Assembly: GCA_030431715.1 (NCBI GenBank)
Contig: JAUIIO010000007.1
Location: forward strand, 33,756-97,755
Direction: 5' to 3'
DNA length: 64,000 bases
From: a bacterium
Lineage (GTDB): Bacteria; Bdellovibrionota_C; UBA2361; RFPC01
In this document: piece after piece, positions 44,500 to 45,546 of the stretch
How the letters are laid out: each line of letters starts with the position of its first letter
Numbering within the stretch: position 1 is the stretch's first letter
Notes under the pieces: generated by a model
The model's input: the letters and a program-made list of their open reading frames with translations, nothing else
Database searches by the model: none
What the model was told of the DNA's origin: nothing
Made by a program: the position numbers and the translations under genes

Positions 44500-44636
44500 C
44501 CTTCCTCCGCGTTCTCCGAGGGCTCCTGTGTTGATTCTTTCTTGGACTAGCTCAGGGTTTTTGTTGCTTCACACATGTAACATGTTTGTGGGCAATGGGA
44601 AAAATAAACAGGGAGAACGCGGAGGTCGCGGAGGGG
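44500..44636. repeat. palindromic intergenic repeat element, copy 1 (REP/MITE-like)
   Basis: Left arm CTCCGCGTTCTCCGAGGGCTCCTGTGTTG. Right arm AATAAACAGGGAGAACGCGGAGGTCGCGGAG. The arms are inverted complements. Variable ~70-nt centre. Confidence 0.6.
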
Positions 44637-44638
44637 GC

Positions 44639-45367
44639 TCATGAGAGATGAATAAGATATTCCTTGTTCCCACCACCGCCTTTAATTGGGGAGGGGATAA
44701 TGCCGTGTACTTTAAATTGGTTTTTAGTGCACCACTTTTCCACATCACTAAGAAGTGACTCTATAAGCGTTTCATCTTTGAGTACTCCTCCTTCAGGTAC
44801 ATCTTCTTGACTTGCTTGATACTGCGGTTTAATGAGGGCTATGATTTTACCTTCTGGTTTCAGAAGCTTCCGTGCTGCGGGAAGGATTTCTTGAAGAGGG
44901 ACAAGAGAAATATCGATACTTATAAAATCAACCTTCTCGGGAAGCTCTACTTTTTGGGCATTATTCTTTTCAAGTACAAAGACTCTATCGTCTGAGCGAA
45001 GCTTCCAATCGAGTTCATTATATGCAGTGTCAACGGCGTACACTTTTTGCGCGCCGTGTTGAAGGAGGCAGTCAGTAAAACCTCCGGTTGAGCTCCCGAG
45101 ATCGGCGCACGTGAGATCTTGGATTGAAACCTTAAAATGCTTAAGAGCTGCTTCAAGCTTCAGTCCGCCCCGGCTTACATATTTTGACGGGAGATCTATT
45201 CGAATAACGGTATCGGTCGGAAATTTTTGTGCTGCAGAAGTTACTACTTGATCGTTCGCCATGACCTTTCCGGCGAGTATCAAAGAGCGAGCAGTTTTCT
45301 CATCAAGCTCAGGATGTGCCCTATGAACATGCTCTAAGAGTTTAATTTTCTTTGGTTTATCAGACAT
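44639..45367 (-). CDS. tlyA: TlyA-family rRNA 2'-O-methyltransferase (S4 domain plus FtsJ-like methyltransferase)
   Basis: S4-like N-terminus. DLGSSTGGFTDCLLQHGAQKVYAVD SAM-binding motif. Confidence 0.9.
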   Translation of the reverse strand: MSDKPKKIKLLEHVHRAHPELDEKTARSLILAGKVMANDQVVTSAAQKFPTDTVIRIDLPSKYVSRGGLKLEAALKHFKVSIQDLTCADLGSSTGGFTDCLLQHGAQKVYAVDTAYNELDWKLRSDDRVFVLEKNNAQKVELPEKVDFISIDISLVPLQEILPAARKLLKPEGKIIALIKPQYQASQEDVPEGGVLKDETLIESLLSDVEKWCTKNQFKVHGIIPSPIKGGGGNKEYLIHLS

Positions 45368-45409
45368 TTAGAACTAGATGTAGCATGCCCCCTGAAACTT
45401 GTCGACAAC

Positions 45410-45546
45410 CTCTCCGCGAGCTCCGTGGTCTCCTGTGTGAATTACATCTTAGGTTTATCCGAAATCTTAGCTCGCTTTACGACCAGAGATACGTACAAGT
45501 TCGCAGGATTTGAATAAACAGGGAGAGCGCGGAGTTCGCGGAGAGG
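45410..45546. repeat. palindromic intergenic repeat element, copy 2
   Basis: CTCTCCGCGAGCTCCGTGGTCTCCTGTGTG ... AATAAACAGGGAGAGCGCGGAGTTCGCGGAGAGG. Confidence 0.6.

Follow-up and report, generated by a model that had tools for sequence, protein, structure and literature searches.

Three inverted heptamer-array repeats in a Bdellovibrionota_C genome, two of them bracketing tlyA: candidate non-autonomous selfish elements of the REP-dimer kind

The stretch of DNA considered here (the window) is a piece of 64,000 nucleotides from a bacterium of the lineage Bdellovibrionota_C; UBA2361; RFPC01 (assembly GCA_030431715.1, contig JAUIIO010000007.1, positions 33,756 to 97,755). It contains three copies of an intergenic repeat, all in the same orientation and each able to fold into a hairpin. 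Copies 1 and 2 lie on either side of tlyA, and copy 3 lies about 15 kb further on, between a nitroreductase gene and an open reading frame (ORF) of 269 amino acids (Table 1). An earlier note, made from the letters alone, had described a family of three copies. The family is real, and the coordinates proposed were right to within about 5 nt. The right arm, AATAAACAGGGAGnnCGCGGAGnnCGCGGAG, is 31 nt long and is found exactly in 3/3 copies, always on the + strand, whereas the chance expectation is 0 in 100 shuffles. The core CGCGGAGnnCGCGGAG, searched with up to two mismatches, has 9 matches against 0.24 expected, and every one of them falls within the three copies.

Three 9-nt units in tandem make up an arm, each comprising a heptamer and two free bases: a head unit, (C)ACAGG(G)AG, precedes two repeats of NN + CGCGGAG. 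In the right arms the heptamers are invariant and the NN dinucleotides vary from copy to copy. The left arms follow the consensus CTCCG[C/A]GnnCTCCG[A/T/C]GnnCTCCTGTGT. The earlier note had both termini nearly identical and the arms reverse complements of each other; this holds for the right arm, but the left arm is degenerate and the two arms are imperfect reverse complements (77–91% over 22–27 nt). Seven of the 12 free dinucleotides of the window are pairable, a number too small to interpret. The inner unit CTCCTGTGT is common to the three left arms, where a perfect complement would read CTCCCTGTTT. The three copies therefore descend from one asymmetric ancestor. Read on the − strand, the left arm of copy 1 gives an "A-type" arm, ACACAGGAGnnCTCGGAGnnCGCGGAG, and that of copy 2 gives ACACAGGAGacCACGGAGctCGCGGAG. 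In all three copies the heads point inward, so that the + strand carries a C-rich arm, the centre and a G-rich arm, in this order.

Table 1. Repeat copies, their parts and the surrounding features (window coordinates).
Feature	Position	Strand	Description
Copy 1	44505..44633		hairpin repeat
Copy 1 left arm	44505..44531	+	C-rich: CTCCGCG tt CTCCGAG gg CTCCTGTGT
Copy 1 centre	44532..44602		71 nt, unique sequence
Copy 1 right arm	44603..44633	+	G-rich, "B-type": AATAAACAGGGAG aa CGCGGAG gt CGCGGAG
tlyA	44639..45367	-	tlyA-family rRNA 2'-O-methyltransferase gene; context only, outside the repeat unit
Copy 2	45412..45543		hairpin repeat
Copy 2 left arm	45412..45438	+	CTCCGCG ag CTCCGTG gt CTCCTGTGT
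Copy 2 centre	45439..45512		74 nt, unique sequence
Copy 2 right arm	45513..45543	+	AATAAACAGGGAG ag CGCGGAG tt CGCGGAG
Copy 3	60197..60329		hairpin repeat
Copy 3 left arm	60197..60223	+	CTCCGAG tt CTCCGCG at CTCCTGTGT
Copy 3 centre	60224..60298		75 nt, unique sequence
Copy 3 right arm	60299..60329	+	AATAAACAGGGAG ct CGCGGAG aa CGCGGAG
545-aa gene	45549..47186	-	T2SSE/REC
pdxH-REC-tlyA block	44639..47972		inverted relative to outgroups
Second inversion junction	47973..48023		no arm
280-aa gene	48024..48866		no Pfam match
269-aa ORF	60336..61145	-	beside copy 3
Tad/Flp pilus cluster	27780..32338		
733-aa gene	32466..34667	+	MshEN+T2SSE+REC
Separate inverted repeat	42656..42728		upstream of ettA
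Coding tandem repeat	24312..25086		across ORFs 23661..24497 and 24593..25522

The centres are variable and close to 70 nt, as the earlier note had it. They have no significant likeness to one another in either orientation (z ≤ 2.5 against shuffles), and a blastn-short comparison with the window and all the other loci collected gives chance 11–13-mers only. The idea that the centre is a guide, an antisense or a captured sequence was rejected on this result. An inverton, in which the centre would be flipped, was also rejected: inverted-centre alignments are no better than shuffles. The combination of exact right arms, unrelated centres and differing dinucleotides indicates that selection or recognition acts on the heptamers. 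The elements are identical in the independent Logan assemblies L025 and L055 and are thus no assembly artefact. The latter extends the source contig by about 6 kb and holds no further copy there. The window-type pattern AAACAGGGAGnnCGCGGAGnnCGCGGAG has no match in the JGI metagenomes, and blastn retrieves no match to the elements in plasmids and phages.

The distances to the neighbouring genes are short. The left arm of copy 1 starts 16 nt past the ettA stop codon (44486–44488) and its right arm ends 5 nt short of the stop codon of tlyA (44639–44641, − strand). Similarly, copy 3 starts 8 nt past the nitroreductase stop codon (60186–60188) and ends 6 nt short of that of the 269-aa ORF (60336–60338, − strand). 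The right arm of copy 2 ends 5 nt short of the stop codon of the 545-aa gene (45549–45551, − strand), but its left arm lies upstream of tlyA, 44 nt from the start codon (45365–45367, − strand). The earlier statement that all the copies sit in 3' gaps and abut stop codons is thus correct for copies 1 and 3 and for one side of copy 2, whose other side faces the beginning of a gene.

Some features of these neighbours are worth recording. The 269-aa ORF has no Pfam or NCBIfam match, and a search of about 5.8 billion proteins yields no homologue but itself, so that the gene is an orphan or else spurious. To the right of copies 2 and 3 (45544–45575 and 60330–60360), the flanks share GGGG(G)TTATTT (GGGGGTTATTT), where two genes unrelated to each other have their final codons. 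The likeness is probably coincidental, because the C-terminus of the 545-aa protein is conserved in the homologous protein of a sister genome. Two proteins of the window have a C-terminal receiver domain (REC) fused to a T2SSE ATPase: the 545-aa protein, which has a weak partial T2SSE match only, and a 733-aa protein with the full MshEN+T2SSE+REC arrangement, encoded beside a Tad/Flp pilus cluster. No S4 domain (PF01479), a domain present in almost every other TlyA homologue, is detectable in the TlyA of the window (242 aa), that of the sister genome (193 aa; L054 2876–3457) and that of one outgroup (L121, 247 aa).

The RNA folds that the earlier note had called for support its view of the elements as hairpins: the arms pair in the minimum-free-energy structure of all three copies. 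On the + strand the energies are −60.1, −68.5 and −67.5 kcal/mol, with z-scores of −4.6 to −7.6. The hairpins of the − strand are 13–20 kcal/mol weaker (−39.7, −55.5 and −50.1 kcal/mol), because several mismatches are G.U pairs on the + strand. Folds computed with DNA parameters agree. A single arm is not a palindrome: it makes a CGCG/CGCG mini-stem of 4 bp only, worth −4.9 kcal/mol as DNA, and a C-rich arm folded alone has a z-score of 0.

The elements might be kept because the hairpin serves the host at the RNA level, as a barrier to 3'-exonucleases, as an RNase III/E processing site or as a factor-dependent terminator, in line with the terminator or mRNA-stabiliser role proposed in the earlier note. 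The stems are indeed very stable, their mismatches are compatible with G.U pairing on the + strand, and the element takes up the whole gap of two convergent gene pairs. The right arm is 5–6 nt from a stop codon in 3/3 copies and the left arm 8–16 nt from one in 2/3, and it is the length of the centre that is kept, not its sequence. REP, ERIC and Correia elements have also been reported to affect mRNA stability (PMC3184786; PMC3733652).

The bidirectional terminator suggested in the earlier note is not supported. There is no T-tract on either strand, and no terminator-like site (stem followed by a T-tract) overlaps any copy on either strand. Moreover, 6/9 convergent pairs of the window abut or overlap, their gaps ranging from −11 to +37 nt; they manage without the element, which shows that a hairpin of 140 nt is no general requirement. 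The stronger + strand of copy 2 is antisense to both neighbours. As described below, the orthologous sites of outgroup genomes have short spacers and no arms, solo and direct-repeat arms elsewhere cannot make a hairpin, and the spacer dinucleotides of related pairs do not covary. Nevertheless, the constant length of the centre and the constant distance of 5–6 nt to the stop codon would otherwise be unexplained, and a host-beneficial RNA element therefore keeps some credit, even if we regard it as improbable.

Other signals were sought in the same sequences. No sigma-70-like promoter is found within the elements. Rfam gives no match at the gathering threshold in the window and 16 related loci, and with an E-value threshold the region 44400–45700 yields sub-threshold plant miRNA hairpins only. 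No tRNA or other Rfam RNA is found in the 64-kb window. The arms could presumably also be read as a CsrA site (ACARGGA) or as a mimic of a Shine-Dalgarno (SD) or anti-SD sequence, two readings which are left as speculation.

The history of the sites can be followed in related genomes. The best named relatives of the EttA protein come from Bdellovibrionales, Bdellovibrionota and Oligoflexia metagenome-assembled genomes (MAGs), with 70–75% identity. In four outgroups whose EttA is 75–79% identical (L057, L120, L121/L122 and L123, the last of which ends just past ettA), no arm is present in about 70 kb. Three of these four show ettA and pdxH co-directional, two of them with tlyA on the same strand (L057 and L121). 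The order is ettA>pdxH>tlyA without the REC gene in L057; in L121 the REC gene is upstream of tlyA, and there is an additional 162-aa ORF on the opposite strand. The spacer between REC and tlyA measures 70 nt in L121, without arms, compared to 181 nt in the window, and copy 2 is therefore an insertion. The pdxH-REC-tlyA block, whose genes are co-directional downstream of ettA in the Bdellovibrionota-like genomes L057 and L121, is inverted in the window, and copy 1 is located exactly at the left junction of this lineage-specific inversion. The window also has an extra 280-aa gene with no counterpart in the relatives compared (L057, L121 and L054).

A closer relative, the sister genome mentioned above (Logan SRR28370423; EttA 84% and TlyA 65% identical to those of the window), has arms at the same sites (at ettA, between REC and tlyA, and downstream of tlyA), in another configuration. 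A solo arm of two units, CACAGGAGcaCGCGGAG, directly abuts the tlyA start, and the G-rich arms come first after the stop codons of ettA and tlyA. The NN dinucleotides of the sister arms (AC and CT) are those of the left arm of copy 2. Both contigs end within identical arm sequence, as would be the case for a perfect inverted repeat breaking a de Bruijn assembly. Since the arms are present in the window and its sister and absent from the four outgroups, the family is a recent, dynamic acquisition of this small clade.

The arm module also occurs in other phyla. The genome- and metagenome-wide scans consisted of exact matches of one pattern each, and ACAGGGAGnnCGCGGAGnnCGCGGAG, which specifies 21 bases, was looked for in a GTDB set with one genome for every species, to which the window genome does not belong. 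This pattern is found at 24 loci: 13 belong to a single MAG with 70% GC (CAYZVO) and 5 to a Verrucomicrobiota MAG with 58% GC (CAZVCO). The other 6 are single matches, as chance could produce, in high-GC genomes with coding-like repeats of 9 nt. The JGI metagenomes add about 17 intergenic arm sites, with 49–67% GC. The CAYZVO contigs (L001–L024) are labelled "uncultured Enterobacterales bacterium"; with 68–72% GC, this label looks doubtful on account of the base composition.

Elsewhere the usual arrangement has the opposite polarity: a stop codon, then ttCACAGGGAGnnCGCGGAGnnCGCGGAG, a loop and CTCCGCGnnCTCCGCGnnCTCCCTGTGaa, with loop lengths between 29 nt and about 650 nt. Some arms stand alone, and others form direct repeats. 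With a strict definition of the heptamers (CRCRRAGnnCRCRRAG), 971 kb of sequence contain 33 pairs with the G-rich arm first, 4 with the C-rich arm first and 13 direct pairs. Two of the 4 C-arm-first pairs are copy 2 counted twice, since the Logan assembly L025 duplicates the window there, and copies 1 and 3 fall outside the strict definition; an independent C-arm-first example exists in L117 (5520–5586). Among 17 G-arm-first pairs of other genomes, the NN positions are purine-rich on the G strand and pairable in 49% of cases, compared to 54% for shuffled partners. The absence of covariation at these positions indicates that the conserved feature is the oriented sequence, not the helix.

In some metagenome and Verrucomicrobiota contigs (L036/L043, L047, L044 and L009) another G-rich array, whose period is 8 nt (for example CACGCAGAGACGCGGAGACGCAAAGGCCATG), comes 20–35 nt after the arm with its 9-nt period. 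The two are in direct orientation, an arrangement that cannot form a hairpin.

In two loci of these MAGs (L008 in CAYZVO and L019 in CAZVCO) the arm pair encloses a gene of 119–134 aa, whose product scores 138–155 bits on TIGR04256 "GxxExxY protein" and on PF13366, PDDEXK_3. These are the only GxxExxY genes in the arm-bearing loci L001–L053 (about 330 kb), and both are enclosed by arms. Another gene of L008 looks, from its sequence, like what we take to be a corrinoid iron–sulfur protein of the acetyl-CoA synthase type. The association extends to viruses: all five GxxExxY loci from IMG/VR (5/5) are enclosed by inverted repeats of 46–80 nt, 72–98% complementary and made of short tandem units, so that all 7 GxxExxY loci examined sit between inverted repeats of periodic units. 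The units are CACAAAGnn in L060, with the same 9-nt (7+2) period, and 13-nt AT-rich sequences in L062–L064. The CACAAAGnn array is present in 54 viral contigs, one of which (L113, 6.5 kb) has three CACAAAGnn dimers, one of them holding a GxxExxY gene. This version also brackets ordinary phage ORFs, with several arrays per contig in phage-like DNA of 60–66% GC.

Other arm pairs enclose unrelated small ORFs, such as a 180-aa lipoprotein-like ORF (L010) and a 137-aa secreted-protein ORF (L050). None of the roughly 40 arm pairs examined holds a transposase; GxxExxY genes and unrelated small ORFs are the only genes between them. In the 64-kb window itself, tblastn with a GxxExxY query finds no such gene, and no GxxExxY, transposase, Y1_Tnp/RAYT (REP-associated tyrosine transposase), integrase or recombinase was found among the window ORFs (36 scanned against Pfam, 6 of them also against NCBIfam). 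In the searchable literature, neither the arm sequence nor the genomic neighbourhood of GxxExxY gives a match, and no functional description of GxxExxY/PF13366 was found; that literature records PF13366 as "unknown", with several transfers. The PDB holds no sequence relative of GxxExxY. The GxxExxY (PF13366) PD-(D/E)XK nuclease is, by association, the best candidate for an enzyme that would mobilise or recognise the arms, a tentative assignment.

The same brackets can be read in another way at the DNA level, in which the arrays would be binding or recombination sites at the borders of movable or invertible segments, and the relevant unit would be the arm pair around a gene, not the 140-bp hairpin. 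In the window, tlyA is bracketed by the G-rich arm of copy 1 and the C-rich arm of copy 2, the polarity seen around cargo genes elsewhere, namely the GxxExxY genes of L008 and L019 and the ORFs of L010 and L050. That copy 1 coincides with an inversion junction and copy 3 adjoins an orphan gene also speaks for this reading, as does the fact that the elements share one orientation and all abut the 3' end of an ORF, as integron attC sites do. However, the near-constant spacing of 71–75 nt of the tight pairs is not expected for independent brackets, the other blocks between arms, one of 14.7 kb and one of over 44 kb, carry ordinary housekeeping genes, and the other junction of the inversion has no arm. 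The core sites of attC (RYYYAAC/GTTRRRY) are absent, and the 36 scanned ORFs include neither an integrase nor a recombinase. We consider it quite unlikely that the arms act as such borders.

The earlier note had called the elements REP/MITE-like, after repetitive extragenic palindromes (REPs) and miniature transposable elements with inverted repeats (MITEs). What stands is that they are dispersed intergenic sequences with inverted arms and no ORF, located by gene ends; they are neither classical MITEs nor classical REPs. As MITEs, they would be deletion derivatives of an insertion sequence with a DDE transposase, and the heptamer arrays would be its terminal inverted repeats. Inverted terminal arms, a size below 200 bp (the usual limit being about 400 bp), the lack of a transposase ORF, an intergenic location and an RNA hairpin are defining traits of MITEs (PMC3184786), and the copies of 250–320 bp in the 70%-GC MAG (CAYZVO) have conserved interiors, like true MITEs. 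By the same definitions, a target-site duplication and a conserved core should be present; a related autonomous insertion sequence with the same ends would be expected too. No consistent target-site duplication is found: copy 1 has a candidate (CTCAT), copy 2 a 4-bp match with inconsistent boundaries and copy 3 none. The cores of the three copies are unrelated, the supposedly terminal CACAG ends point inward in the window instead of outward, and the arm pairs enclose no transposase. We consider a derivation from a classical insertion sequence quite unlikely.

REPs offer a closer parallel. They occur as single units or as head-to-head or tail-to-tail dimers with 20–100-bp spacers, and one type of dimer has variable spacers of similar length (PMC3733652). 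They are found downstream of genes or between convergent genes, cause no target duplication, and have a cognate gene which is flanked by repeats (PMC3733652; PMC3337134). The window elements resemble REP dimers, REPINs and BIMEs (bacterial interspersed mosaic elements), which are mobilised by RAYTs, in that a short oriented unit exists alone or as an inverted dimer of either polarity with a spacer of 20–100 bp; all three copies, with 71–75 nt between their inverted units, can fold into one large hairpin, as REPINs do. They are likewise extragenic, may fold as single-stranded DNA or RNA and lack target duplications, and the cognate-gene arrangement would correspond to that of a REPtron. They differ from REPs in the unit itself: instead of a palindrome of 20–40 bp, the window arm is a tandem heptamer array with a 9-nt period and a 4-bp CGCG stem only. 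The GTAG or CGTC tag characteristic of REPs (PMC3733652) is absent from the arm ends, which read (C)ACAGG(G)AG and CGCGGAG-NGGG. The gene found between such arms encodes a PD-(D/E)XK protein, GxxExxY, not an HUH/Y1 transposase. Finally, the window arm sequence is common to phyla of 45–70% GC, whereas a REP family seldom extends beyond one species or genus, some being present in several species (PMC3733652).

Three other systems may be compared. Correia/NEMIS elements of Neisseria and ERIC elements of enterobacteria are also intergenic, 100–160 bp long, with inverted ends, and are co-transcribed with adjacent genes into long RNA hairpins that can alter mRNA stability (PMC3184786); ERIC, like the arm module, is conserved across genera. 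Unlike the window elements, whose cores are unrelated and whose arms are periodic, their cores are conserved and their targets duplicated (TA or others), and the Rfam and BLAST searches, to which the comparison is confined, reveal no sequence likeness between them. TIRtrons, in which terminal inverted repeats (TIRs) flank TIRYT genes (Di Nocera et al. 2013), share with the loci described above the presence of long non-REP inverted repeats on either side of a small enzyme gene, and the fact that the same repeats are also found in that genome without an ORF, in moderate abundance, as singles, dimers and clusters, as is the case for the arms of L008 and L019 and the CACAAAG arms of L113. They differ in that the enclosed gene specifies a tyrosine/HUH transposase, not a PD-(D/E)XK nuclease of putative activity. 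Integron attC sites, too, consist of an imperfect inverted repeat in which the ends are conserved and the centre varies; they have one orientation, lie directly 3' of an ORF and depend for their function on a folded single strand. The window elements have no R''/L''-L'/R' core sites, no integrase and no array, and their neighbours are housekeeping genes. The attC interpretation was rejected: the ends read CTCCGCG ... CGCGGAG, neither GTTACCT nor GTTATGG, which are found downstream, agrees with GTTRRRY, and no recombinase is present in the scanned ORFs.

A provisional grouping, "GxxExxY-associated periodic-arm hairpins", can be defined by inverted arms made of tandem units (CRCRRAG, 9-nt period). 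It includes the window arms, with 3 x 9 nt, and the arms of L001–L051; a CACAAAG version occurs in L060 and L113.

The window has two further repeats. A separate inverted repeat of 27 nt (TTTATGCGAAGGATGGAAGCAATCCCC / GGGGATTGCTTCGTCGTTCGGCATAAA, with a 19-nt loop) is located in the gap upstream of ettA and has no relation to the heptamer arms. The other, a tandem repeat in coding sequence (CTTGGTAATGGTGATGGNACATTTCAAAGTG...), has a period of about 147 nt, runs across two ORFs and presumably resembles FG-GAP/VCBS-type repeats.

On balance, we lean towards the view that the window elements are non-autonomous selfish repeats of the REP-dimer/REPIN kind, in which the heptamer array is the recognition module. 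Each element would be a dimer of one oriented arm module with the heads facing inward, around a spacer of about 73 nt which is free to drift; the conserved entity would be the heptamers, and not the spacer, the free dinucleotides or base-pairing as such. The array may be the recognition site of a protein acting in trans, and the elements would spread, or have spread in the past, as selfish DNA without target duplication, possibly as single-stranded hairpin DNA, as proposed for REP/REPIN elements.

There are two weak hints of such a single-stranded route. The first is the common orientation of the 3/3 copies. The second is that the stronger hairpin is on the + strand. The GC skew is positive in every 8-kb window of positions 1–64000 (+0.05 to +0.11), irrespective of gene strand, which places the entire window on a single replichore. 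By this skew the + strand reads as leading-strand sequence and is identified as the lagging-strand template.

The mobilising protein could be the GxxExxY PD-(D/E)XK nuclease, in an arrangement analogous to a REPtron or a TIRtron. A broader version of this idea, to which we give only tentative credence, is that the heptamer arrays (CRCRRAG, 9-nt period, for example CGCGGAGnn or CACAAAGnn) serve as addresses for a kind of mobile hairpin not yet described, spread across phyla and phage genomes, whose autonomous form has the GxxExxY nuclease between its arms (a "GxxExxY-tron", like a REPtron but with an enzyme of another superfamily), the window elements being non-autonomous inward-head dimers. 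An element inserted by a stop codon would be co-transcribed and would give a stem of −60 to −68 kcal/mol. Such a stem may protect or process the 3' ends of mRNAs; an incidental effect on co-transcribed RNA is likely, and is taken as a by-product.

Several points weigh against the selfish-repeat reading. The inward-head polarity is represented by three copies only, and its origin from the more common outward-head form lacks an explanation. Neither a GxxExxY gene nor a transposase or RAYT was found in the window (by tblastn and among the 36 ORFs compared with Pfam). The GxxExxY link is an association observed in other genomes, where the gene could as well be cargo or a parasite of the hairpin. 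The strong divergence of the centres implies that the copies are old, and old copies with perfect right arms need continuing selection, which is not obvious for a purely selfish relic. The constant length of the centres (71–75 nt) and the constant distance of 5–6 nt from the right arm to the stop codon both hint at a constraint imposed by the host or by structure.

If the elements are indeed selfish repeats of this kind, the REP/REPIN concept would extend to a recognition module that is a tandem heptamer array instead of a palindrome, with a partner enzyme that is probably a PD-(D/E)XK nuclease instead of a Y1 transposase, and the widespread GxxExxY/PF13366 family would gain a testable substrate. 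If the GxxExxY-tron version also holds, it would provide both a function and a DNA substrate for the large GxxExxY/PDDEXK_3 family. For the organism itself, the elements mark lineage-specific sites of rearrangement and insertion by ettA, tlyA and the orphan gene, and they account for intergenic gaps that are unusually long for a gene map as compact as this one. Assemblies from short reads would be broken by them, as in the sister genome.

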